From Candidatus Daviesbacteria bacterium (GTDB lineage Bacteria; Patescibacteriota; Microgenomatia; Daviesbacterales; UBA10151): 64,000 nucleotides of DNA. Both the position numbers and the translations under genes were made by a program. Location of the stretch: assembly GCA_028712705.1 (NCBI GenBank), contig JAQTPP010000003.1, positions 64,052 through 128,051 on the forward strand. Reading direction: 5' to 3'. Each line of letters opens with the position of its first letter. Within the stretch, counting starts at the first letter, position 1. Under the pieces are notes generated by a model. That model did no database searches, had not been told where the DNA came from, and saw only the letters and a program-made list of their open reading frames with translations. Below are positions 3,626 to 21,008 of this stretch, piece after piece.

Positions 3626-4783
3626 TTAATTTGAAATAGGCTCTAGTCTTTTCAGGGCTTGATTTTTTTCAGAGGGGTTAATCCTGGATTTAATCACCAC
3701 TTTTCTTAAAGTTTCAATGGTAGCATCATAGGTTGGCCGGTCTACAGGATATGGAGTGGCATCTTTTCCGCCGTGGGCAAAACTGTAGCGGGCCGGGTCT
3801 TCATAAGAAGGTCTGGCCCCATAAATTACTTCTGAAACCAAACTTAAAGCTCTGATAGTTTTTGGTCCTACTCCTTTAGTTGCCAAAAGCGCTTCATAGT
3901 TTTGAGGCTTGTTATTGGCTAATTTTTCCAGAATTTTTTTAAGGTACGGGCTGTCCCAAAAATTTTCATCTTCTACTGGATGGTGATGAAATTCATTTGA
4001 AGAAAGCTGGAGCAGTGTCACTTTTCTACCGCCAACAGATACTCTCATCATCTTACTTAAATCAGTTGAGTGTTTCTTAAGAAGCTCAATATCACTCATT
4101 AAAGTTTTAAAACCTGAGGAAACAAGTTCAGCGCTTAAGTTTCGGGTTTTAGTGCTGGTTTTGGCAGTTAAGTTAAGGACTTGTGGTTGGGAGATTTGGG
4201 TGGCAATGCCGGAGTGAGGCTCACAAACCAGATCATCAATGTTCTCCGAATACCAATGATACCTTCTGGCAGTAAGGTGCCTCGTATTCATCCCCTGTTG
4301 AACAACTGCCCAGGTGCCATTTTTTGAAAAAAAGAAGCTGTGGTGATAAATTTGAAAGCCGTCCTGGATTAAGCTGGAGTCAACTTTGGCAGACATCCGG
4401 GAATTGTAAACCAGATTGTTGGCATGGGCTGGGGGTAAATTTAATCTTTCACCCCAAGCTAAAATTTCATCAGGAGTTTTGCGGGAAGTTTTACCTTTGC
4501 CTCCACAGATAAAAACCCCAAAATGCTGTTCCTGACCTCTTATAGCCTCTTTGAGAGCTGCTGTGAGTATTGTTGTTAATCCCGAGGCATTCCAGTCAAA
4601 AGCCAAAACTGTGCCTAAACTTTGAAACCAAACCGGGTCGGCAATTCTTTTAATAAATTCATCCGGGCCATATTCTTCAATTAAAACCCTGGTCATTTCC
4701 CTGCCCAAGCGGACCATTCGGTCAAAAAGCCATTTGGGGCAGGTTCCGTAATCTAAGGTAAAAGTGGCAATTCCTCTTTGCAT
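3626..4783 (-). CDS. hypothetical protein, DUF763-like (recalled from memory, not searched)
   Basis: 385-aa ORF. N-terminus MQRGIATFTLDYGTCPKWLFDRM resembles my recollection of DUF763. Confidence 0.55.
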   Translation of the reverse strand: MQRGIATFTLDYGTCPKWLFDRMVRLGREMTRVLIEEYGPDEFIKRIADPVWFQSLGTVLAFDWNASGLTTILTAALKEAIRGQEQHFGVFICGGKGKTSRKTPDEILAWGERLNLPPAHANNLVYNSRMSAKVDSSLIQDGFQIYHHSFFFSKNGTWAVVQQGMNTRHLTARRYHWYSENIDDLVCEPHSGIATQISQPQVLNLTAKTSTKTRNLSAELVSSGFKTLMSDIELLKKHSTDLSKMMRVSVGGRKVTLLQLSSNEFHHHPVEDENFWDSPYLKKILEKLANNKPQNYEALLATKGVGPKTIRALSLVSEVIYGARPSYEDPARYSFAHGGKDATPYPVDRPTYDATIETLRKVVIKSRINPSEKNQALKRLEPISN

Positions 4784-4799
4784 AATCTACTCCGATTTT

Positions 4800-4850
4800 T
4801 CGATGGACTTGCCCTGAGCGAGCGAAGCGAGTCGAATGGGTTCGGGTTAT
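4800..4850. repeat. GC-rich intergenic island with GCGAAGCG core
   Basis: ctgagcgagcgaagcgagtcgaatgggttcggg in otherwise AT-rich spacer. Shares the GCGAAGCG core with elements at 49025-49100 and 799-878. Confidence 0.35.
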
Positions 4851-4910
4851 CTTTGTAATTTTACTGTAGCTGATGGTCTACTGATTTGTCAACATCAGTA
4901 TTCGTTCCAC

Positions 4911-5171
4911 CTATTTAATAACTTGTAGTTGGGAAACAGGGCGATAATATGGATCCTGAGAAACGTCCTTATTCAGTCTTCCAATGACTTCTCTTGGAAT
5001 TTCAGTTTTATTTAGGTAGGCTTTGTATGCACGATGATTTCCATGAACAAGAGCATGATTTCCTGCACTATCTTCATAAACTGTTACTGGGATGGTTGGT
5101 TTTGCTTTATCAACTCGGTCTTGATGAACAATGCATTCTGGTGTATAGAGCGACGGGAATTCCTTTGGCAT
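4911..5171 (-). CDS. small ParB N-terminal-domain-like (ParB/Srx fold) protein
   Basis: 86-aa ORF. The ALVHGNHRAYKAY motif resembles the ParB-like nuclease-domain G-x-H-R-x-x-A signature. Confidence 0.5.
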   Translation of the reverse strand: MPKEFPSLYTPECIVHQDRVDKAKPTIPVTVYEDSAGNHALVHGNHRAYKAYLNKTEIPREVIGRLNKDVSQDPYYRPVSQLQVIK

Positions 5172-5206
5172 CCATAAATAGTAACAGGCGAACCCAGAGA
5201 TGTCAA
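5172..5206 (-). promoter_or_regulatory. sigma70-like promoter for the ParB-like gene, leaderless
   Basis: Minus strand: TTGACA (5201-5206), 17-nt spacer, TACTAT (5178-5183), then 6 nt to the ATG at 5171. Confidence 0.45.
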
Positions 5207-5253
5207 CCTATAGTATGATGCCTACTTGGTAAACGTTGGTTGAATAATAACAG
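5204..5253. repeat. diverged copy 1 of a repeated upstream element
   Basis: caacctatagtatgatgcctacttggtaaacgttggttgaataataacag aligns with copies at 6117-6185 and 7083-7157. Confidence 0.45.
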
Positions 5254-5264
5254 TCTCAAAAGTT

Positions 5265-6080
5265 TCACTTAGAAGCAGTTTGAATTGATGGTGGAGTTTT
5301 TTCAATTAACCAAACACTTTTTGCCAGAAAATTTACATCATTAGCGCTTAAGTTGTTTATAGTGGTATACTGAAACATAAAAGCTACGACTAGATCTCTG
5401 AAAGACCAAGGTCTTTCAGTTCTTTCATAAGGATCAATAACATTGATATTCAGTCTTCCGTCTCGTATCTGAAAGCCTGTTAAAGTGCGAGCGTGTTCAA
5501 ATGTTATACCCTGAGCAAGAGTATATCTGGGGCTATAAGGCCAACTTAATATTCCAACAGAGCCTCGATCAAATCTTTGAAGTAATTCAAGCATTATATC
5601 TGGAACTAACAAATCATTTCTAGCCTCTCCTTTAAGTTGTTCCATTCTAAATCTTCCATAGGGTGGCCCAGAAGAAAATATTTCAAGTAGAGAAGCTGGC
5701 TGAAGAATATCTCCTAACTCAACTAAACGTCCTAATTGTCTAGAACGTATTTCTGTAAGTCTAGATTTAAGTGCATCCTTTGTGTAATTTATATTAGGTT
5801 CATCAAGTACCCTTAGACCATTTGCTGTCGCAATATAAGCGCAACTTTCATCGTCGGTTTGTCTGAGTGATATGTTTTGGCCTAAACACATGGCTTGTCG
5901 ACCTATTTTATAGACAAAGGGGCTATCATGATTTAGTGGAAAATGGCTAACCAAATATGTTTCAAACCCTGCTAAAATAGGCTCATTATTTGTTCTCGCT
6001 TGAGGTGTTAAGCTATCCCAAAATTCACAACCTGCCGTGACTGTTCTGATTCCATTACCATGTATATTTTCAGTTGTCAT
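5265..6080 (-). CDS. hypothetical protein
   Basis: The ORF track gives 5265..6119 with a TTG start. The ATG at 6080 (MTTENIHG...) sits 10 nt after a TAAAAT -10 box and is the likelier start. No recognisable domain. Confidence 0.6.
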   Translation of the reverse strand: MTTENIHGNGIRTVTAGCEFWDSLTPQARTNNEPILAGFETYLVSHFPLNHDSPFVYKIGRQAMCLGQNISLRQTDDESCAYIATANGLRVLDEPNINYTKDALKSRLTEIRSRQLGRLVELGDILQPASLLEIFSSGPPYGRFRMEQLKGEARNDLLVPDIMLELLQRFDRGSVGILSWPYSPRYTLAQGITFEHARTLTGFQIRDGRLNINVIDPYERTERPWSFRDLVVAFMFQYTTINNLSANDVNFLAKSVWLIEKTPPSIQTASK

Positions 6081-6120
6081 AATAAATGAAATTTTAACAA
6101 AAAGTAGAGAAATAATCAAC
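6081..6120 (-). promoter_or_regulatory. sigma70-like promoter, leaderless
   Basis: Minus strand: TTGATT (6114-6119), 17-nt spacer, TAAAAT (6091-6096), then 10 nt to the ATG at 6080. Confidence 0.45.
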
Positions 6121-6185
6121 TATAGGATAATGTCCACCTAATAGACGTTAGTCTAACCATTATACCTAATCTATCATTTGAAGAG
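6117..6185. repeat. copy 2 of the about 70-bp repeated upstream element
   Basis: caactataggataatgtccacctaatagacgttagtctaaccattatacctaatctatcatttgaagag is about 80% identical to the copy at 7083-7157. Confidence 0.6.
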
Positions 6186-6233
6186 TTAACCATATATAGA
6201 CAACTCTCCTTGTTAAGAGATGGTAGGGATTGA

Positions 6234-7046
6234 TTATTGAGAATCTCTAAGATTTTGAATAAAAAAATCTCTTATCATATTTACAACCACGCCCTTAAAA
6301 GGTTCATTATGAAATCCATGGCTACCGCCTGCTAACATTTCAAGTCGCTTCCTAGGGTTTGGTAATCTTTTGAATTGCTCAACTACATCCCTATAGTCGA
6401 TTTTGTCATCCAGATCTCCTTGAACTACCATAATTTCGTGTGGATACTCTGCTAATGCATCAAAAGGTCTATACTGTTGCATTTCTTCAAACAGTATCTG
6501 TCCTAATCTAAATCTCCCTGCCCCTACTTCTAAATACCCTCTATCTTGAACTCTTTCTTCAATATTTCCAAAAAACTCTTTTCCCCAAGGTGTTTTAGGA
6601 TGAAGATAAACAGGATCAAAATCTAAAACAGGGTTCTCAAGAAATAGTGCTTGAATTTGCTGTGGATGATCTGCTGCATACAAGACACTAATTGCTCCTC
6701 CAAAACTTGCTCCAGCTAAACCAATTCTTTTAATACCTTGCTCTTGAAAAAACTTAACCATAGTATCTATATCAGCCATCGTTCCTGGAATCGTAACTTC
6801 TTGTTCAGAGTTGAGTTGTCTCAAGCCATGACCACGAAAATCAAATCTCAATGTTGAAAACCCTGCACTATTGAGGATAGGCTCAGCTGCTACTAATACA
6901 CTTTCTCTGGATCTATTTGTGGTAATTCCATGAGCAAGAATAATTCCTCTTTGGTTATTAGTTACCTGCCCAAAATCTGCATTTAATATAAGTCCATCTT
7001 GGGTTGGTATATCAACAACTCTGGTCTCAATTGCATCTAGTGACAT
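6234..7046 (-). CDS. alpha/beta hydrolase fold protein
   Basis: 270-aa ORF. HGITTN...FRGHG and nucleophile elbow GASFGG. Confidence 0.75.
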   Translation of the reverse strand: MSLDAIETRVVDIPTQDGLILNADFGQVTNNQRGIILAHGITTNRSRESVLVAAEPILNSAGFSTLRFDFRGHGLRQLNSEQEVTIPGTMADIDTMVKFFQEQGIKRIGLAGASFGGAISVLYAADHPQQIQALFLENPVLDFDPVYLHPKTPWGKEFFGNIEERVQDRGYLEVGAGRFRLGQILFEEMQQYRPFDALAEYPHEIMVVQGDLDDKIDYRDVVEQFKRLPNPRKRLEMLAGGSHGFHNEPFKGVVVNMIRDFFIQNLRDSQ

Positions 7047-7085
7047 ATGGAAGAAGATTATACCTTAGCAACCAAGATTATTCAA
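7047..7085 (-). promoter_or_regulatory. sigma70-like promoter, leaderless
   Basis: Minus strand: TTGAAT (7080-7085), 17-nt spacer, TATAAT (7057-7062), then 10 nt to the ATG at 7046. Confidence 0.45.
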
Positions 7086-7157
7086 CTATAGGATAAATGT
7101 CCACTGGTAAACGCTAGTCGAACCATTATTCCTGATTTAACGTTTGAAGAATTACAG
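7083..7157. repeat. copy 3 of the about 70-bp repeated upstream element
   Basis: caactataggataaatgtccactggtaaacgctagtcgaaccattattcctgatttaacgtttgaagaattaca. Confidence 0.6.
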
Positions 7158-7193
7158 ATTTATACACAATTTCCTTATAGATTTTAGCTAAAC

Positions 7194-8801
7194 TTGTCAA
7201 AAAATCTTTTAAATTCCAAACGGCTATTTTTAGAAGTTTTTTATGCTATACTGACAAAAATGGAAGGTCAGGGAGGCGGAATCGATAATGAACCAAGTTT
7301 ACATAAGATAGATCGTGGTTTTGACCTAAAAGCAGTTAGATCGCTGGTGAGAAAATTAGATAATCCAGGTCTTTGGAAAAACGGAAACGAAGCCAAAAAG
7401 ACGCTCTACGAACTATGGGAAAAGAGGCCCACTCTAGCTTCTGGATTAGATAACAAAGCTTCTATAGGAGTCACCTTGAAATCTTTCAGGCACCTTCAGA
7501 CTTTTGATTACAATAGATATCTACCTGATTATGCAGTAGAGGAAGCGAGAGCTGATGTCGATAGATTAGTTTTAGACAATATTCCTGCTATAGACAGAGC
7601 TGTAGAAATTAGTGCTAACCCTGCTGATCTGCAACTGAGTATCGATTTAGTTACTGGCGTGCTTAACGCAGGTGAACTTTCTCAAGACAGGAGAGAGACA
7701 AATTTTCTATTAAAACACTTTGAAGAGGGACTAAGAAGTGACGATTCAGAAGACGAGAAGGAGCCTGGATATACAAAATACCATCTTATAGCTTCAAAGA
7801 TGTTTCTGAAAATGGATGAAAATCAACGCGCAAGAGCAATGGAAATGTTTCAGGCTATGATTGATAATCCTGAAATAGGAAAACAGGCAGTTTATGTAAT
7901 AAACGTTCTTTCTGGAGATCAAATGATTCCTGATAACGCAAGGGAAGAAATCCGAAGAACTTTAACTAAACCAATAATCAATAAACTTGGATTAGATTAT
8001 GATGAATTGACAAAAGCTTGGATTAGCGGCAGTGATGAGATTATTGGTAATTATTTTTATCATACAAGGAATTTAAATCAAATTTTTATTCTTGAATCTA
8101 CCAACCCAGGGATTTGCAGAACCTTAAAGGATGAGTTCGGAATAACTAATTTTGATCGCTACCCCCGAGAATTATTAGTAGATTTATTTGAGCAAAGAAA
8201 TAGCACAAATACTCCTTATGGCTTAATGTTCTATCCTAAAAGAGACCATAGTGGGGCTGCTTATTTGTCAAAAAGCGTTGTGGGGAAGTTTTATAAGCAA
8301 CTTAAATCTCTTGGATATGGTTTAAGACTTTATGAGGTGGGCAGCAAGATAGACCTTGCTAGAGCTTTTATAACTTCTCAAAATAAGTTCGGCACTAGAA
8401 ATAAAATAGACTTTGTTATTCTGGTTGGACACGGCAATCCGCAAAGCATAACTTTTGGAGAAACTGGTAAAAATGCTGAAGCAGGAGAAGAAATAAACGA
8501 CCACAATGTAAAGGGTATTATTCACCAACTTGATTTTGAGGGGAAAGGCGTGCAGCGAATTGGTGAATTATTGTCTAATAATGCAAATATAATTCTTGTA
8601 TCCTGCTCTACGGGCGCAGCTGAGGGAATAGGAAAGACAATTTCCGAAACATATCCTGGCACGTTGGTGACAGCACCTGAAACTCCTACTGATTTAAGAG
8701 GTATAGATGTGACAAAAGATGACCAAGGCAAATTGCGCTTTAGAGTTGCTTATAGATCAGCAGATACATCAAGGTCTTTTGAGTCCGGAAAATCAGTTTA
8801 A
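7194..8801 (+). CDS. hypothetical protein with C-terminal caspase/CHAT-like His-Cys domain
   Basis: 535-aa ORF (alternative start MEGQGGG at 7260 after TATACT). C-terminus DFVILVGHGNPQS ... about 60 aa ... ANIILVSCSTGAAEG fits the beta-strand-HG / beta-strand-C pattern of the caspase fold. Confidence 0.55.
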   Translation: MSKNLLNSKRLFLEVFYAILTKMEGQGGGIDNEPSLHKIDRGFDLKAVRSLVRKLDNPGLWKNGNEAKKTLYELWEKRPTLASGLDNKASIGVTLKSFRHLQTFDYNRYLPDYAVEEARADVDRLVLDNIPAIDRAVEISANPADLQLSIDLVTGVLNAGELSQDRRETNFLLKHFEEGLRSDDSEDEKEPGYTKYHLIASKMFLKMDENQRARAMEMFQAMIDNPEIGKQAVYVINVLSGDQMIPDNAREEIRRTLTKPIINKLGLDYDELTKAWISGSDEIIGNYFYHTRNLNQIFILESTNPGICRTLKDEFGITNFDRYPRELLVDLFEQRNSTNTPYGLMFYPKRDHSGAAYLSKSVVGKFYKQLKSLGYGLRLYEVGSKIDLARAFITSQNKFGTRNKIDFVILVGHGNPQSITFGETGKNAEAGEEINDHNVKGIIHQLDFEGKGVQRIGELLSNNANIILVSCSTGAAEGIGKTISETYPGTLVTAPETPTDLRGIDVTKDDQGKLRFRVAYRSADTSRSFESGKSV

Positions 8802-8827
8802 CGAAAGGTTAAAAATTATAAAGTCCA

Positions 8828-8878
8828 GAGGGGAGGATAATACACCCAATCCTTCGACGAGCTCAGGATTGGCGAACC
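8828..8878. other. conserved about 50-nt hairpin motif, copy A
   Basis: GGAGGATAATACACCCAATCC-loop-GGATTGGCGAACC. Near-identical flanks recur at 55163-55207. Both copies lie 80-90 nt 3' of a minus-strand tRNA. Confidence 0.5.
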
Positions 8879-8968
8879 AATTCTCCGGCAAAGCCGGATC
8901 ATTAAGTCACAAATCCTCAATCCTTAAAATTTCGATTACGTCAGTAACAAGTACTGACTTATCGAAAT

Positions 8969-9051
8969 GTCCGGAGGGGAGGATTCGAACCTCCGCAGGG
9001 AAAACCCGGCTGATTTACAGTCAGCTGCAATTGGCCACTCTGCCACCTCCG
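8969..9051 (-). tRNA. tRNA-Tyr (anticodon GTA), long variable arm
   Basis: Reverse complement folds with acceptor CCGGAGG/CCTCCGG, anticodon loop cuGUAaa, T-arm GGAGGTTCGAATCCTCC. Confidence 0.85.
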
Positions 9052-9227
9052 GATAAGCTAAATTATATCTAATTTTTATGGTTATTGCTATGCCTGAATT
9101 GTTTTCAAAACTGTTCACATTAATGTCACAGTCGTAGTATTAATGTGAACAGAGATGTTTGAAGTGAAAATTTGAAGTGAAAAAAGATTCGCACAAAAGG
9201 ATCCACACCTGATATAATCAATTTTAT

Positions 9228-11783
9228 ATGATTCGCGGTTCATGGAAAGAGAGAAAAGAAAATAAAAAGATCTGGAAGTTTAAGTTTTTATCAAATTTAT
9301 CTACAGGAATGTTAGTTATTGTAGTGGGGTTTTTGTTACTCCTTTTTGGATCCGTAATTTTTTTTGCAACCCAAATACCCAATCCTTCCGATCTATCAAA
9401 CCGCGACATTGCCCAGGCCACTAAAATTTATGATAGAAAAGGGCAATTGCTTTATGACATTTACCAAAACCAAAACAGGACGCCCATAAAGTTAGCCGAA
9501 ATCCCTGAATATGTTAAAGAAGCAACCATTGCTATTGAGGATAAGGAATTCTACAAACATTCCGGTTTTTCTATCACCGGTATTATCAGATCTGTTTTTG
9601 AACTGGTGATTCACCGTCGGGTTGAAGGCGGATCTACACTGACTCAACAGCTGGTTAAAAATGCTTTGCTTTCCGGCGAGAGGACTCTAACCCGGAAACT
9701 TAAGGAATTCATTCTGGCAGTGCAGGTAGAACGCGCTTATTCTAAGGATGAAATTTTAGAGATGTACTTGAACGAAATTCCTTATGGCGGGACAGCTTAC
9801 GGAATTGAGGCTGCAGCTAATTTATATTTTGGAAAATCCGCTAAGGATTTGGACCTTGCGGAAGCGTCCCTTTTGGCAGGTTTACCTCAGCGTCCTTCTG
9901 TTTACTCGCCCTATGGCAGCCATCCTGAGCTGGCACAAGTCAGACAAAAAGAAGTTTTAGGTAGGATGGTTGAAGATAAGTTTATTACGGAAAATCAAGC
10001 TACGACAGCAACAGCGGAGCAGTTGATTTACAGGACAGGCCGGAGCGAACAGGGTTTCAAGGCGCCTCATTTTGTTCTTTATGTGAAGGAGAAGCTAATT
10101 GAGCAATTCGGGGACAAGATGGTGGAAGGAGGAGGTTTAAAGGTAACTACAACGCTGGATTATGATTTGCAGGAACAAACCGAGAAGATAGTTAAAAAAG
10201 AAGTAGATAACTTATCATCAGCCAAAGTTGGCAATGGAGCAGCTGTGGTGTTGGATCCAAAAACCGGCCAGATCCTTTCGATGGTTGGAAGCAGGGATTA
10301 TTTTGGTAAATCTGCGCCTGACGGGTGTAAAGAAGGAATAACTTGCAGCTTTGAACCTAATGTAAATGTAGCCACCAGTCCAAGGCAGCCCGGTTCTGCA
10401 ACCAAACCGATCGCCTACTCTAAAGCTTTGCAAAAGGGATATACGGCAAATCAAGTTTACATGGATGTTAAAACCGAGTTTCCCGGAGGTAATAAACCTA
10501 CCTATATTCCTGTTAATTATGACGGTCAATATCACGGAGTTGTCCAGATGAGGTATGCCCTGGGTAATTCATACAATATTGCTGCTGTTAAGAACTTAGG
10601 CTTGGTCGGAGTAAAAGATGTGCTGTCGCTGGGTTACCAAATGGGTCTAACAACCTGGGAGCCTTCGGATGAAAATGTAGCATCAGTTGGCTTAAGTCTT
10701 GTTTTGGGAGGCAGAGAAGTCAGACTTCTTGATTTAACCTCGGCCTATTCAGTTTTTGCCAACCAGGGTCGCCAGCTTGATCCTGTTTCTATTTTGAAAG
10801 TTACGGACAGCAAAGATAAAACCCTGTTTGAATTTCATCAATCGCAGGGAAAAGAAGTTTTAGATCAGGGTATCGCCTTTATCATTTCAGATATCCTTTC
10901 TGACAATGGTGCCAGAACAGCGGCCTTTGGTTCAAATTCGGTCCTAAACGTGTCCGGTAAAACCGTGGCAGTTAAAACCGGAACAACTGATGAGAAAAGG
11001 GATAATTGGACAATCGGATATACGCCGTCTGTTGTTGTGGGAGTTTGGGTTGGCAACAATGATAATTCTATAATGAGTCCTGTTGTTGCTTCCGGCATAA
11101 CAGGCGCCTCCCCTATCTGGAATAAAATTATGGCTGCTGTGCTTAAAAGCAGTCCTAATGAATCGTTTCCAAGGCCGGATGACGTTGTGCAAGTTGAAGT
11201 AGACGGCTTGATGACAGGAAAGCCGCATGCCGGTTCCCCGACCAGGAGAGAATATTTTATAGCCGGAACAGAGCCGAAAAACGAATCAAGCTCTTATCAG
11301 CGCCAGAAAGTTTGTAAAAGCAATCCTCACCGGTTGGCTAATGATAATGAAGATAACGAGGAAAAGGATGTAGTGGTTTTAAAAGAAGACGATCCGACCG
11401 GAGCAAATAAATGGCAGACCGGTATAGACCAGTGGGTTTTGACAGCTGCTGACGCCCGTTTGGTTGGGGCTACAAGAGGTTGTTCGGGTGTTCCCGGCTT
11501 TACAGCCGGCACTGGTGGAGTGATAGAGATTGTGAATGTGGGTAACGGCGCTAACGTACCAAGGGTTTTTGATGTTTTGGCTAGGGCTAACTCACCCGCC
11601 GGTGTTAAAAAAGTTACATGGTTAATAGACGGCGGGGTAAAATCAACTCAAACTTCCGAGCCTTTTGCCCTGCATGTGGAATTTCCAGTTGGTGATAAAG
11701 GTTCGCATACAATTACCATAACTTTGGAAGATAATAACGGCGGAAGTTTTTCCAGCTCAATTGGGGTTACTGTGGCCTTGTAA
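9228..11783 (+). CDS. class A penicillin-binding protein (transglycosylase + transpeptidase) with C-terminal Ig-like extension
   Basis: 851-aa ORF. GT51 motifs (EDKEFYKHSGF, GGSTLTQQL), transpeptidase motifs (SATKP, KTGT). TATAAT at 9213-9218 sits 9 nt before the ATG. Confidence 0.85.
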   Translation: MIRGSWKERKENKKIWKFKFLSNLSTGMLVIVVGFLLLLFGSVIFFATQIPNPSDLSNRDIAQATKIYDRKGQLLYDIYQNQNRTPIKLAEIPEYVKEATIAIEDKEFYKHSGFSITGIIRSVFELVIHRRVEGGSTLTQQLVKNALLSGERTLTRKLKEFILAVQVERAYSKDEILEMYLNEIPYGGTAYGIEAAANLYFGKSAKDLDLAEASLLAGLPQRPSVYSPYGSHPELAQVRQKEVLGRMVEDKFITENQATTATAEQLIYRTGRSEQGFKAPHFVLYVKEKLIEQFGDKMVEGGGLKVTTTLDYDLQEQTEKIVKKEVDNLSSAKVGNGAAVVLDPKTGQILSMVGSRDYFGKSAPDGCKEGITCSFEPNVNVATSPRQPGSATKPIAYSKALQKGYTANQVYMDVKTEFPGGNKPTYIPVNYDGQYHGVVQMRYALGNSYNIAAVKNLGLVGVKDVLSLGYQMGLTTWEPSDENVASVGLSLVLGGREVRLLDLTSAYSVFANQGRQLDPVSILKVTDSKDKTLFEFHQSQGKEVLDQGIAFIISDILSDNGARTAAFGSNSVLNVSGKTVAVKTGTTDEKRDNWTIGYTPSVVVGVWVGNNDNSIMSPVVASGITGASPIWNKIMAAVLKSSPNESFPRPDDVVQVEVDGLMTGKPHAGSPTRREYFIAGTEPKNESSSYQRQKVCKSNPHRLANDNEDNEEKDVVVLKEDDPTGANKWQTGIDQWVLTAADARLVGATRGCSGVPGFTAGTGGVIEIVNVGNGANVPRVFDVLARANSPAGVKKVTWLIDGGVKSTQTSEPFALHVEFPVGDKGSHTITITLEDNNGGSFSSSIGVTVAL

Positions 11784-18259: not shown

Positions 18260-19006
18260 TTAACCAAATTTTCTAATAGCGCTACTTTGTGCTTGAAGTT
18301 CTAAAGTATCATTCAGGGGTTCCAGTTCAATTTTCCCGCCATATTTTACTTCCAGAGCTTTTTTCAGCAGCCAATCAGCAAGTTTTGGATTTTTGGGCAA
18401 AAGCGAGCCATGCATATAAGTGCCGACGGCATTTTTATAAATACAGCCTTCAGTCTGATCCTCCCTGTTATTGCCAAAGCCTTTTACTACCATGCCTAAA
18501 GGTAAAGCGCCTTTTTTCAGGTAAGTTTTTCCGGAATGATTTTCAAATCCTACTAATTTGCCAAACATAGATTCGATTATGATATTGCCGATCATCCGGT
18601 CATGGCTTGCTACAGTATATGCTGGAAATAGTCCTACGCCAGGAAGCTTTGGGCCATTGTGGGGTTTATAATAATCCCCTAAAAGCTGGTAACCACCGCA
18701 AATAGCCAGAAGAGGAACTCCTCTTTCAACTTCTGATTTTATGCTTTTTCCCTTGCTACTTACTACCAAATCCCTTGCTACTAACTCTTGTGCCTGATCT
18801 TGCCCGCCTCCGAAAAAGTAAATATTGATTTTTTTACTTGACACATCGGATGTGTAAAGTTTATCGTCTATAGAAATATTTTTGACGTCAACCTTAATTC
18901 CTCTCCACTCTGCCCGCTTTTTCAGGGCAATGATATTGCCTGTGTCCCCATAAATATTCATCAGATCGCCGTAAAGATAACCGATTGTAATTTTCATTTT
19001 ATTCAT
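18260..19006 (-). CDS. gatD: lipid II isoglutaminyl synthase, glutaminase subunit GatD (CobQ-type GATase)
   Basis: 248 aa. MKITIGYLYGDLMNIYGDTGN, conserved Cys in LLAICGGYQLLG. Overlaps the murT end by 8 nt. Confidence 0.75.
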   Translation of the reverse strand: MNKMKITIGYLYGDLMNIYGDTGNIIALKKRAEWRGIKVDVKNISIDDKLYTSDVSSKKINIYFFGGGQDQAQELVARDLVVSSKGKSIKSEVERGVPLLAICGGYQLLGDYYKPHNGPKLPGVGLFPAYTVASHDRMIGNIIIESMFGKLVGFENHSGKTYLKKGALPLGMVVKGFGNNREDQTEGCIYKNAVGTYMHGSLLPKNPKLADWLLKKALEVKYGGKIELEPLNDTLELQAQSSAIRKFG

Positions 19007-20360
19007 CCTCCCAGTAATGTTTCTTGATGCCGGCTTTAGTCAGGATTGATTGCAGTTCCAGCATGGCAGTATATGTGGGAAGGATGAACAGTTTGCCTTT
19101 TAAGCCCATTCCAGCTTGTTTCAGAGCCTGTTTCAGGTCCGGTTGTATTTTAATTTCTTTAGGATTAAAATTGGCATATTTCAAGCGGAGCGCCAGATCA
19201 TTTGCCCTGGAACCGGAAGCAATTATTGTATAGTCCCTCGACTTCGCTCGTTCAGAAAGATTCGATGAATTTTGAATGAGTTCAAAATTCGCATCCCAGA
19301 TCCATGATACGTCTGTACCGTCCGCAATATTGTCATTTAATGCCAGAAGCATTCTGTCCCCGGGTTTGATATTTGGTGCAATAGTTTCAAAGACCTGGGT
19401 AGCTCCGGCCGGATTTTTGATCAGGAAAATATACCCCATGTATCCTACCTCGGAGGTAGGAGTACGATGAGACGTAGGGTTTAAATGGAATTTCTCGACC
19501 CTGCCAAAGGCAGGTGAATAGGTTTTCAAGGACAAAACCATTTCATCAGGATCTATATTTAACATTGTTCCTGCTGCAAAGGCAGCCAAAAAATCATAGA
19601 TATGGTAGATACCGGGAACCGGAAGATGGACGATGGAAGATTGATAATGGAGAGAAAGTGAGAATGAAATTCCGGTTAACCCGTTTGTTTTGACATTTTT
19701 TGCTTCAAAATCCAAGTTTTCGATTTCTTTCTTGTGAATAATTGATTCTCCGGCAATCGTGTAATCCTTGACACCAAATTTTTGAACTTTACCTCTAAAA
19801 CAGGCAGCCAGCTTTAATATGTTGGCATCGTCGCCGTTAACTAAAACCGCAGTTTCCGAAGAGAGCTTTTTTAGTGCCTGGCACCAGTTTTTGGTCACAG
19901 TATCAATTTCACCATAACGGTCAAGTTGATCACGGAAGACATTCAAAAAGATCACAACTTCAGGGTTTAGCTTTGGAGTAACGTTGTTGAAAGCTGCCTC
20001 ATCCAGTTCCCAAATCCCTAGGTCAAAATTTAGCCTGCAACCTTTCAGGTTGACGCACAGGTTGACGCATGAAATTAGAGTAGAGGCGATGCCGCGCTCA
20101 AGATTGGAACCGGTATGATTTCTGATAACTTTAAGTCCTGTTTCTTTTGCAAAATGGGCCAGCATTTTGGCAGTAGTGGTTTTGCCGTTAGTTCCGGTTA
20201 TCACTACATTTTTGGGGATTTTAGCAGCTAATTTTGCAACCAGATTCGGTTCGATAGACAGGGCATATAAACCCGGAGCAGCTGATCCTCCTCCGAGTTT
20301 AAAATTACGGGTGAGGAAAAAAATTAGTTTACCTACTAAAATGGCCAGAATAAATCGCAT
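18999..20360 (-). CDS. murT: lipid II isoglutaminyl synthase, Mur-ligase-like subunit MurT
   Basis: P-loop VITGTNGKTTTAKM, Mur ligase middle domain, DUF1727-like C-terminus. Likely start is the ATG at 20360 (MRFILAIL), 6 nt after TTATAAT. Confidence 0.8.
   Translation of the reverse strand: MRFILAILVGKLIFFLTRNFKLGGGSAAPGLYALSIEPNLVAKLAAKIPKNVVITGTNGKTTTAKMLAHFAKETGLKVIRNHTGSNLERGIASTLISCVNLCVNLKGCRLNFDLGIWELDEAAFNNVTPKLNPEVVIFLNVFRDQLDRYGEIDTVTKNWCQALKKLSSETAVLVNGDDANILKLAACFRGKVQKFGVKDYTIAGESIIHKKEIENLDFEAKNVKTNGLTGISFSLSLHYQSSIVHLPVPGIYHIYDFLAAFAAGTMLNIDPDEMVLSLKTYSPAFGRVEKFHLNPTSHRTPTSEVGYMGYIFLIKNPAGATQVFETIAPNIKPGDRMLLALNDNIADGTDVSWIWDANFELIQNSSNLSERAKSRDYTIIASGSRANDLALRLKYANFNPKEIKIQPDLKQALKQAGMGLKGKLFILPTYTAMLELQSILTKAGIKKHYWEDE
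19445..19482. repeat. palindromic repeat (family 2) inside the murT coding sequence
   Basis: CCTACCTCGGAGGTAGG palindrome followed by agtacgatgagacgtagggt; close homologue at 55398-55439. In frame: HRTPTSEVGYMG. Confidence 0.5.
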
Positions 20361-20372
20361 GTGAGCATTATA

Positions 20373-20405
20373 ACTAGTCACTAGTCACTAGTCACTAGTC
20401 ACTAG
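20373..20405. repeat. tandem heptanucleotide repeat (ACTAGTC) x 4.7
   Basis: Exact tandem copies immediately upstream of the murT -10 box and start. Confidence 0.9.
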
Positions 20406-20411
20406 AGTTAT

Positions 20412-21008
20412 TTATCTTAAGGCTAATTGGCCCGAGATGGCAGCTATCTTTGGAACAAAACCGATATTTGCCTGCATATTTTCGCCTTCAAAAGTGTTTG
20501 CGAACTTTTCTAAATCATTCATGAAATATGAAACCTTTCCACCCCAATAAGGGGAAGCAGCATAAACTCTGTTTATGGAATAAGGGTTTGTTAAACCTTT
20601 GTTTAAGTAATTTTCGCGTAAACCTTTAGCGACAGTAAAAATAGCTTCTCTCCATGAACTAAAATAAATAGCCTGGGTGCCATAAACTCCCCAACCCCAT
20701 CCATTAAAACCTCCCGGTATAGCTTTTCCGAAAGTGGATTCAACGCCTGCGATTGAGGGTAGAAGTTTCCAGTCTAAATTATATTCGTTGGCAGCATCAA
20801 TAAAATCCTGCGCATGATATTGCAGCGGAGAATCAAATTTTTTCAAATAGGCAGCTAAAATTTCTGCTTTGCTATCCAATTTTCTGGATTGCACCTGGGT
20901 AACCTGGTCAGTAATTTCCATCTTTTTTTCCGCCCGAACTTGCATGTTTGGGAAAAGGAATAGAAGAGTTAATAAAAAATAAAAAATTTTTAATTTTTTT
21001 GTTTTCAT
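20412..21008 (-). CDS. secreted or anchored glucosaminidase-like (FlgJ/Acm-type) peptidoglycan hydrolase, paralog 1
   Basis: 198 aa. N-terminal signal/TM region, LLPSIAGVESTFGK motif. Confidence 0.55.
   Translation of the reverse strand: MKTKKLKIFYFLLTLLFLFPNMQVRAEKKMEITDQVTQVQSRKLDSKAEILAAYLKKFDSPLQYHAQDFIDAANEYNLDWKLLPSIAGVESTFGKAIPGGFNGWGWGVYGTQAIYFSSWREAIFTVAKGLRENYLNKGLTNPYSINRVYAASPYWGGKVSYFMNDLEKFANTFEGENMQANIGFVPKIAAISGQLALR

Follow-up and report, generated by a model that had tools for sequence, protein, structure and literature searches.

Intergenic repeats that lie ahead of several unrelated genes raise the question of whether the repeat is a shared regulatory site or a sign of something else, such as the way in which the genes were acquired. 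The question arises for positions 4784–9051 of a contig from a metagenome-assembled genome (MAG) of Candidatus Daviesbacteria, a bacterium of the candidate phyla radiation (CPR). The stretch of DNA analysed is 64 kb long and is termed the window; coordinates are those of the window. On the minus strand, an element of ~70 nt, termed E, is found in three copies (E1, E2 and E3), which lie upstream of the genes for an 86-amino-acid (aa) protein, a 271-aa protein and an alpha/beta hydrolase, respectively. A tRNA-Tyr gene is close by. A preliminary description of this sequence proposed that E is the target of one regulator. The comparison with related loci leads to another reading, to which we assign a probability of roughly 0.6. 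In this reading, E serves as a boundary element in an array of exchangeable gene cassettes behind tRNA-Tyr(GTA) in Daviesbacteria and not as the operator of a common regulator, and the cassettes are moved by site-specific recombination.

Distribution and layout of the arrays

Related loci were obtained from protein look-ups, a scan of GTDB genomes, a metagenome scan and small open reading frames that overlap E. A degenerate pattern of the 26-nt core of E retrieved five loci from GTDB genomes and 16 from JGI metagenomes. With respect to a phage origin, the same pattern gave no matches in IMG/VR. A profile of the conserved body brings the total to 48 copies of E in 27 non-redundant loci, these being the window and 26 further Daviesbacteria-like loci.

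The orientation of E is uniform within every array and is also that of the tRNA gene. The largest arrays have six copies (locus L024) and five copies (L018), and copies are spaced 645–3106 nt apart. The head of the array is visible in ten loci (the window, L005, L008, L011, L016, L020, L024, L025, L026 and L027), and in all ten a co-oriented tRNA-Tyr(GTA) gene is found upstream of the first E. From the tRNA-Tyr gene onward, cassettes and copies of E alternate, starting with a cassette; each cassette has one E, situated on the side distal to the tRNA. No E directly follows the tRNA in the loci compared. The 3′ end of the tRNA (...CCTCCGGAC) sits where the 3′ end of E (...CCAGGTGGAC) sits further down the array. 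On the short contigs that encode the two homologues of the 271-aa protein (L002–L004), any two adjacent genes are separated by E, and the neighbours are unlike those of the window.

The interval that holds the array is one chromosomal hot spot. In all arrays it is located between three glycosyltransferase family 2 (GT2) genes and the genes for a penicillin-binding protein (PBP) and PheST. These flanks display 65–76% nucleotide identity to the window across genomes, and the gene content between them differs in every related genome examined. The synteny comparison thus bears out the proposal that the block is an accessory, variable region at tRNA-Tyr. The preliminary description had also proposed a defence-type gene content, which is not supported: none of the four proteins of the block matches any PADLOC defence model.

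Four of the loci (L005, L006, L007 and L009; GTDB CAYSNN01, CAZWTE01, CAZFVS01 and CAZDFU01) are titled ‘uncultured Gammaproteobacteria bacterium’. They share synteny (three GT2 genes, PBP, PheST) and 65–75% nucleotide identity with the Daviesbacteria window, and the label looks wrong.

Two forms of tRNA-Tyr(GTA) are found at the same genomic position. One is 84 nt in length and has a long variable arm (window 8969–9052, L005, L008 and others). The other is 74 nt in length with a short variable arm (L020:5883–5956 and L024:7347–7420). A long variable arm is usual for bacterial tRNA-Tyr.

The array in the window

The array strand is the minus strand. The features, in their order from the tRNA, are as follows.

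8969..9052, minus strand: tRNA-Tyr(GTA), the anchor at the head of the array (ARAGORN; Rfam tRNA model, 57.7 bits)
8929..8968, minus strand: hairpin ATTTCGATAAGTCAGTACTTGTTACTGACGTAATCGAAAT directly 3′ of the tRNA (RNA fold, −15.4 kcal/mol)
7260..8801, plus strand: cassette 1, reversed, gene for a 513-aa protein, listed from 7194 as an open reading frame (four homologues, AF2 model, Foldseek)
7099..7167, minus strand: conserved body of element copy E3, which closes cassette 1 (nhmmer, 61.2 bits)
7057..7085, minus strand: promoter-like site of the hydrolase gene, TTGAAT-17-TATAAT, carried by the cassette; the ATG is 10 nt past the −10 box (promoter scan)
6234..7046, minus strand: cassette 2, alpha/beta hydrolase, 270 aa (Pfam)
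6132..6201, minus strand: element copy E2, which closes cassette 2 (nhmmer, 60.5 bits)
6091..6119, minus strand: promoter-like site of the 271-aa gene, TTGATT-17-TAAAAT, carried by the cassette; TG precedes the −10 box, and the ATG is 13 nt past it (promoter scan)
5265..6077, minus strand: cassette 3, orphan protein of 270/271 aa (two homologues; no family matches)
5220..5291, minus strand: element copy E1, degenerate, which overlaps the last codons of the 271-aa gene (nhmmer, 32.4 bits)
5178..5206, minus strand: promoter-like site of the 86-aa gene, TTGACA-17-TACTAT; the ATG is 6 nt past the −10 box (promoter scan)
4911..5171, minus strand: gene for the 86-aa miniprotein with a predicted ParB/Srx fold, last gene of the block (family, motif, AF2, Foldseek)
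3626..4783, minus strand: DUF763 gene

The hairpin behind the tRNA probably terminates transcription between the tRNA gene and the 513-aa gene, which converges on it. Counted from the tRNA, the cassettes are the reversed 513-aa gene with E3, the hydrolase gene with E2, the 271-aa gene with E1, and the 86-aa gene, which has no recognizable E.

A repeat search pairs positions 6113–6203 with 7079–7169 over 91 nt, at 75% identity without gaps and ~80% with one gap, the latter being the value first given for copies 2 and 3. An nhmmer model made from these two copies only finds the first copy as the best remaining match in the window (5201–5244, E = 0.037), and no other match in the 64 kb is better than E = 4.5. 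The pairwise repeat together with the recovery of the third copy by the profile confirms that the three elements are homologous. The remaining ~60 kb of the window has no copy of E. With a model of 16 copies, the conserved bodies are at 7167–7099 (61 bits), 6201–6132 (60 bits) and 5291–5220 (32 bits). The coordinates originally assigned to the elements fall inside the true bodies, but they are shifted toward the genes and miss the distal 20–40 nt. The CTATAG-TTGA junction that had been counted as part of the element sits past the conserved body and is present in only some copies.

The consensus of E on the minus strand of the window is TTGTCTATATATnTnTAATTCTTCAAATGATAAATTnGGTATAATGGTTCGACTAACGTTTACCAGGTGGAC, ~70 nt in length. 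The conserved body terminates at ...GGTGGAC, which is 0–12 nt ahead of the −35 box. Single-nucleotide indels are present in several copies, and E3 has a 1-nt deletion within CCAGTGGAC. Copies are mutually ~73% identical; ~45 positions are near-invariant across genomes, and sites that behave as synonymous are saturated (pS 0.55). There is no signal of concerted evolution within arrays, the mean identity being 0.716 within an array and 0.730 between arrays. Searches for remnants at the two ends of the window array gave no significant result, either after the 86-aa gene (4784–5000, p = 0.08) or between the tRNA and the 513-aa gene (p = 0.60).

One copy of E in L005 (6985–7085) contains an insertion of 17 nt between two copies of (C)GTTTACCA, the sequence being …CGTTTACCAC ATTCATGTCTAACTGAA CGGTTTACCAGGTGGAC. 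This insertion could be the footprint of aberrant recombination inside the core.

Cassette content and exchange

Each cassette has one or two unrelated accessory open reading frames, which are found in either orientation: 46 have the orientation of E and 16 the opposite one (16/62). A Pfam census was made of 61 cassette proteins, with the first 25 of 60 matched families listed. It shows PemK/MazF (four), MazE (three) and DUF5615 with DUF433, and, among the matches listed, Fic, GNAT, APH, SDR, LigT, DUF2268, GIY-YIG and others. The cassette content is diverse and rich in toxin–antitoxin genes.

Cassettes are shared between genomes, in different surroundings. The 271-aa cassette displays 78–84% nucleotide identity between genomes. 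In the window it lies between the hydrolase and 86-aa genes; in L002 it adjoins a gene for 512 aa, and in L003/L004 its neighbours encode 225 aa and 88 aa. The cassette with the 88-aa gene, at 85% identity, is situated behind E in L003 and directly behind the tRNA-Tyr 3′ end in L005. The motif AACCTATAGTTGATTA, which in the window is found past E2 and E3, is present in L020 immediately past the tRNA, and the hairpin that follows the tRNA in L024 is homologous to hairpins that follow E in L018, L021 and L024. Thus, the same cassette can follow either the 3′ end of the tRNA or the 3′ end of E, which is evidence that the two are equivalent boundaries. The MazEF cassettes of L009 and L020 help to define the boundary. 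Their homology begins at TTGACAA, directly past GGAC, which places the left boundary of a cassette at, or a few bases past, ...GGAC. The first cassettes of arrays show no homology in the two comparisons of the window with L027 and with L002. A homologue of the 513-aa gene of the window (64%) is found in another Daviesbacteria genome in an unrelated context, with no E nearby.

Promoters and the question of a common regulator

The three sites of the TTGAnn-17-TAnnAT type that were described initially were found by the promoter scan at the positions claimed. With 14 promoter-like sites in all, the region is no richer in them than its shuffles lead one to expect (14.5). The −35/−10 region is cassette-specific, i.e. 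it is homologous among the orthologues of one gene and different between genes. The three orthologous 271-aa cassettes (L002, L004 and that of the window) have a conserved sequence between TTGA and the ATG, which other cassettes lack. Past GGAC the sequence is heterogeneous and consists of TTGACA directly, of 5–10 nt followed by CTATAG(G)TTGA, of a hairpin, or of other sequence. The arrangement observed is a polar array anchored at tRNA-Tyr, with exchangeable cassettes that are bounded by E and whose own promoter starts 0–12 nt past ...GGAC. The sequence CTATAGTTGA was considered as a general promoter motif and rejected; it has only four exact copies in the 64 kb, and the two outside the elements are not upstream of genes.

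Leaderless promoters had been proposed as a trait of this cluster. A −10-like hexamer that ends 4–14 nt before the ATG is found at 22 of the 45 long open reading frames of the window, and a Shine–Dalgarno-like motif at only four. The close −10 box is therefore a genome-wide property and not one of the cluster, and the mRNAs of this genome seem as a rule to have a very short leader or none.

If E were an operator or upstream activating site, one transcription factor would co-regulate the three genes, and the element would span the −35 to −105 region. Each E of the window does lie just upstream of a promoter-like site, and some 45 strongly conserved positions are compatible with protein binding. 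The wider set of loci makes this explanation quite improbable. In L007 and L008, E is found where there is no co-oriented downstream gene to drive, and in L024, L018 and L016 it adjoins cassettes of the opposite orientation. The −35 and −10 boxes are outside the conserved body, and the distance from the body to the −35 box varies, from 0 to 12 nt or more. E is tied to tRNA-Tyr arrays in ten of ten loci and is missing from the rest of the 64 kb, and the genes downstream are unrelated and differ in every genome. E may have a secondary insulating or silencing role. For genome annotation, the locus is a caution that repeated intergenic elements ahead of genes are not to be read as operators.

Nature of the repeat element

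With respect to secondary structure, RNAalifold applied to 16 copies of E shows a mini-stem of six pairs only (−2.7 kcal/mol, no covarying pairs). DNA folds of single copies, on both strands, have z-scores of −1.45 to +1.05 and are no better than those of shuffled sequences. An identity of E with integron attC sites was rejected, as the conserved hairpin was not found. E was also considered as a known RNA family, but Rfam at E ≤ 1 over positions 4000–10000 finds tRNA only.

A partial resemblance to tRNA is present. The last 27 nt of E (GGTTCGACTAACGTTTACCAGGTGGAC) are similar to the 3′ terminus of the 74-nt tRNA-Tyr of L020 and L024 (GGTTCGACTCCTACCCCATGGAC), with 17 of 23 positions identical. 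In a local alignment with this tRNA, the E consensus reaches p = 0.012, and copy E3 reaches p < 0.002. Among 23 tRNAs, tRNA-Tyr is the best match of E, although narrowly so (7.0 vs 5.5 for tRNA-His and tRNA-Leu). The E profile detects no tRNA-Tyr, and the Rfam tRNA model gives E no score. Stray T-arm fragments (CTAAATAGGTTCGACTCC) are found within the arrays of L018 (~2320–2345) and L025 (~9400–9420), where the next cassette begins, 35–45 nt past E. The CTATAG(G)TTGAC seen where other cassettes begin may be a degenerate form of this fragment. Judging by these sequence similarities, it is possible that part of E is tRNA-derived.

At the level of codons, substitutions among 29 distinct copies of E display a coding-like pattern. 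The pN/pS ratio is 0.35 in one frame opposite to the array strand, 0.44 in the sense frame with which it shares the wobble position, and 0.8–1.9 in the other four frames; none of 200 column shuffles reached 0.35. The antisense frame reads VHLV[ND]VS[RL]T[IL]IPNLSFEELxIYRQL, followed by a stop (25–28 codons; e.g. the plus-strand frame at 6132–6201 and 7099–7167). Several features speak against a coding function: both E frames lack a conserved start codon, many copies have in-frame stops one to three codons upstream of the E frame, and 1-nt indels are present in several copies.

Several coding origins were considered and rejected. E does not appear to be the 3′ end of a larger gene, as a profile of the antisense peptide finds only four incidental open reading frames of 51–76 aa among 5.8e9 proteins, and the peptide is not the C terminus of any long protein there. 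No locus has a stop-to-stop frame that joins the E peptide to a larger protein. In L008, E abuts a 150-aa gene in frame, and this was not found in the homologues of that gene. As for E as a C-terminal tag, added by read-through to the protein of the preceding cassette, 10 of 24 cases have matching frames, with eight expected. A micro-open reading frame that starts at ATG GTT CGA was dismissed, as the ATG is present in only ~40% of E copies.

Mechanism and alternative explanations

According to the boundary-element proposal, cassettes would move as units of genes plus E by site-specific recombination of E with another E or with the 3′ end of tRNA-Tyr. The tRNA 3′ end would act in the manner of the integron attI site, and the crossover would fall at or just past ...GGAC. 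The gene for the recombinase would be situated at another place in the genome or on a helper element, and E would be conserved as the binding site of this enzyme. Once in the array, cassette genes would be expressed from their own near-leaderless promoters. A more specific version is put forward tentatively: an integron-like cassette-capture platform made of different parts, with the tRNA-Tyr 3′ end as insertion site, an unstructured recombination site of ~70 nt, a recombinase that acts in trans and promoters that belong to the cassettes. Here E is perhaps read as, or derived from, a short coding sequence.

Several observations weigh against the proposal. A search for a recombinase in the window and in all loci (phmmer, six-frame open reading frames, approximate IntI1 and XerD sequences as queries, with limited sensitivity) gave nothing below E = 1. 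The open reading frames listed for the window include none that is recombinase-like, and an integrase is absent among the matches listed for the 61 cassette proteins. Excision products, empty sites and circle junctions were not observed. E lacks a conserved secondary structure and an obvious dyad symmetry like that of the core sites of tyrosine or serine recombinases, and its codon-like substitution pattern is not predicted by a pure protein-binding-site model. There is no recognizable E behind the 86-aa gene. Finally, having orthologous cassettes as neighbours does not make two copies of E more similar than a random pair (mean identity 0.73), and therefore co-travel of E with its cassette is not demonstrated.

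The main rival is homologous exchange, in which there is no dedicated recombinase, and cassettes are swapped by RecA after DNA uptake, with tRNA-Tyr and E, or the GT2 and PBP flanks, as anchors. It accommodates the failure to find a recombinase near any array, the want of a hairpin or dyad symmetry in E and the 65–76% identity of the flanks, and if crossovers fall anywhere in E, the element is expected not to co-vary with either neighbouring cassette, as is the case. Nevertheless, we consider it rather unlikely. Identity of ~73% over 70 nt makes a poor substrate for RecA, and a passive anchor would decay, whereas E keeps its near-invariant positions in a background of saturated change. The strict polarity of the arrays, with one distal E per cassette, none after the tRNA and all copies co-oriented, suggests a directional reaction. 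The arrays could alternatively be ordinary tandem tRNA islands, with E a decayed copy of the 3′ half of tRNA-Tyr, i.e. the attR scar of elements that have lost their integrase. The position of the array at the tRNA 3′ end, the tRNA-Tyr likeness of the 3′ part of E and the stray T-arm fragments are in keeping with this, and the tycheposons of Prochlorococcus are likewise stacked between partial tRNAs (bioRxiv 10.1101/2020.12.28.424599). This origin is nonetheless improbable. The tRNA likeness is not seen by either profile and has a small margin over other tRNAs; E is closer to the E of other genomes than to the tRNA of its own; 45 nt of E have no counterpart in the tRNA; and scars would not remain conserved. 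No integrase remnant is present among the Pfam matches listed for the cassette proteins, and cassettes of 0.6–1.2 kb are far smaller than integrase-bearing islands.

The arrays also invite comparison with a canonical integron array that lacks its integrase (CALIN), with E as attC. Cassettes are short and mostly have one gene, toxin–antitoxin pairs occur in either orientation in both, and the co-oriented repeats of ~60–130 nt, one distal repeat per cassette, are alike within a lineage, as are the VCR repeats of Vibrio. In both, a site of another kind heads the array, namely attI in integrons and the 3′ end of tRNA-Tyr in Daviesbacteria, and cassette order varies between relatives. The GTTGAAT that follows E3 even fits the R′ consensus GTTRRRY. 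However, E has neither the conserved imperfect-palindrome hairpin of attC nor its R/L boxes, and the putative R′ box is not conserved, since only some junctions fit. Every co-oriented cassette examined here has its own promoter, in contrast to the common Pc promoter of integrons, and the array head is a tRNA gene and not an attI–intI unit. IntI was not found (phmmer, approximate queries), and the host is a CPR bacterium. That E is an attC site in the strict sense is thus very improbable indeed. Full-text searches of the literature brought up no account of integrons in Patescibacteria, nor of tRNA-linked cassette arrays in that group.

Modules moved by Xer recombinases, such as those bounded by pdif sites in Acinetobacter plasmids and the IMEX elements at dif, resemble the arrays in their small cargo, in the short conserved sites that bound them and in a recombinase that is encoded elsewhere. 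pdif sites are 28-bp XerC/XerD dyads that alternate in orientation. E, on the other hand, is ~70 nt long, has no obvious dyad and is always in direct orientation. Tycheposons offer a close parallel with respect to tRNA anchorage. They are islands formed by tandem integration at tRNA genes, with partial tRNAs between the elements (bioRxiv 10.1101/2020.12.28.424599). In both cases, the island grows at the tRNA 3′ end and has stacked units, direct repeats, degenerate copies and variable accessory content. The tycheposon repeats, however, are recognizable partial tRNAs, and E is at most faintly tRNA-like. In addition, tycheposon units carry tyrosine recombinases and replication genes, whereas the units here are 0.6–3 kb in length and have one or two cargo genes, with no recombinase among the matches listed. 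The Daviesbacteria arrangement is most likely a variant of the integron type or of the tRNA-island type that lacks the defining marks of both: attC structure and IntI are absent, clear partial-tRNA repeats are absent, and an integrase was not found in the units.

CPR genomes are tiny, and how they acquire and shuffle accessory genes is poorly understood. If the boundary-element proposal is correct, a dedicated hot spot would provide a concrete and testable mechanism for the flexible gene pool of the CPR, with toxin–antitoxin pairs, hydrolases, Fic, GNAT, an APH-like kinase and a caspase-like protein as cargo behind one tRNA gene. It would also represent a functional analogue of integrons outside the lineages with known integrons. 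In practical terms, the E consensus is a tool for retrieving cassettes from metagenomes and for seeking the recombinase.

Proteins encoded in the window array

The 86-aa protein belongs to a family of 19 cluster representatives, and a DGNHR motif is invariant in 16 homologues. Its AF2 model has a pLDDT of 93. The top Foldseek matches are all ParB/Srx proteins (Atu1540, sulfiredoxin, SbnI, Noc, PadC, ParB and KorB), with TMq values of 0.44–0.66 and probabilities of up to 0.99, but E-values of 0.045–1. The Pfam ParBc model gives no match. The predicted fold and the invariant motif support the initial assignment as a ParB-like miniprotein. A match to the designed NHL ‘Pizza’ propellers was set aside as an artefact of a short motif summed over six repeats.

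The alpha/beta hydrolase assignment is secure (Pfam Hydrolase_4, E = 8.1e-20; Abhydrolase_1, 2.3e-13). The 271-aa protein is PHV63_01920 at NCBI and has only two homologues among 5.8e9 proteins. It gave no matches in Pfam, NCBIfam, PADLOC, PHROG or PDB.

The reversed gene of cassette 1 was described as encoding a caspase-like protein of 535 aa. This length applies to the listed open reading frame that starts at TTG 7194; a start at ATG 7260 gives 513 aa and is most likely the true one. In the protein, an N-terminal domain of helical repeats is followed by an alpha/beta domain at the C terminus, and only four homologues were found. Their alignment displays an invariant His (GHG) and an invariant Cys (LVSCSTG). 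The AF2 model has a pLDDT of 76, and of only 50–65 around the Cys. Foldseek matches of the C-terminal domain are dominated by caspases 3, 4, 6, 7 and 11, with probabilities of 0.8–0.97, E-values of 0.05–0.17 and TMt values of 0.3–0.4. The profile aligns the His and Cys motifs with those of caspase-4 at a weak E of 1.3, and the one Pfam match, to DUF4347, is weak as well (E = 0.07). The invariant residues and the fold matches of the model partly support a caspase-like C-terminal domain, but the E-values of the fold matches are only 0.05–0.17, and the length is probably 513 aa.

A relative with a homologue of the 513-aa protein has three LAGLIDADG homing-endonuclease genes in a row (L031:11349–14208), which are probably within rRNA introns.

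Other sequence features of the window

A perfect 14-nt inverted repeat, CTGTTCACATTAAT N14 ATTAATGTGAACAG, is found at 9111–9152. It is intergenic, upstream of the PBP gene (9228–11783), and is a possible operator. A GC-rich segment, CCTGAGCGAGCGAAGCGAGTCGAATGGGTTCGGG, is present at 4805–4850 in otherwise AT-rich surroundings, in the leader between a TTGACA promoter (4892) and the start of the DUF763 gene; a portion of the segment was annotated as a terminator-like stem of the plus strand. Lastly, at least four tandem heptamers CTAGTGA are found at ~20385–20420, where they abut a −10-like box that precedes a 460-aa Mur-ligase-like gene (18999–20381, minus strand).

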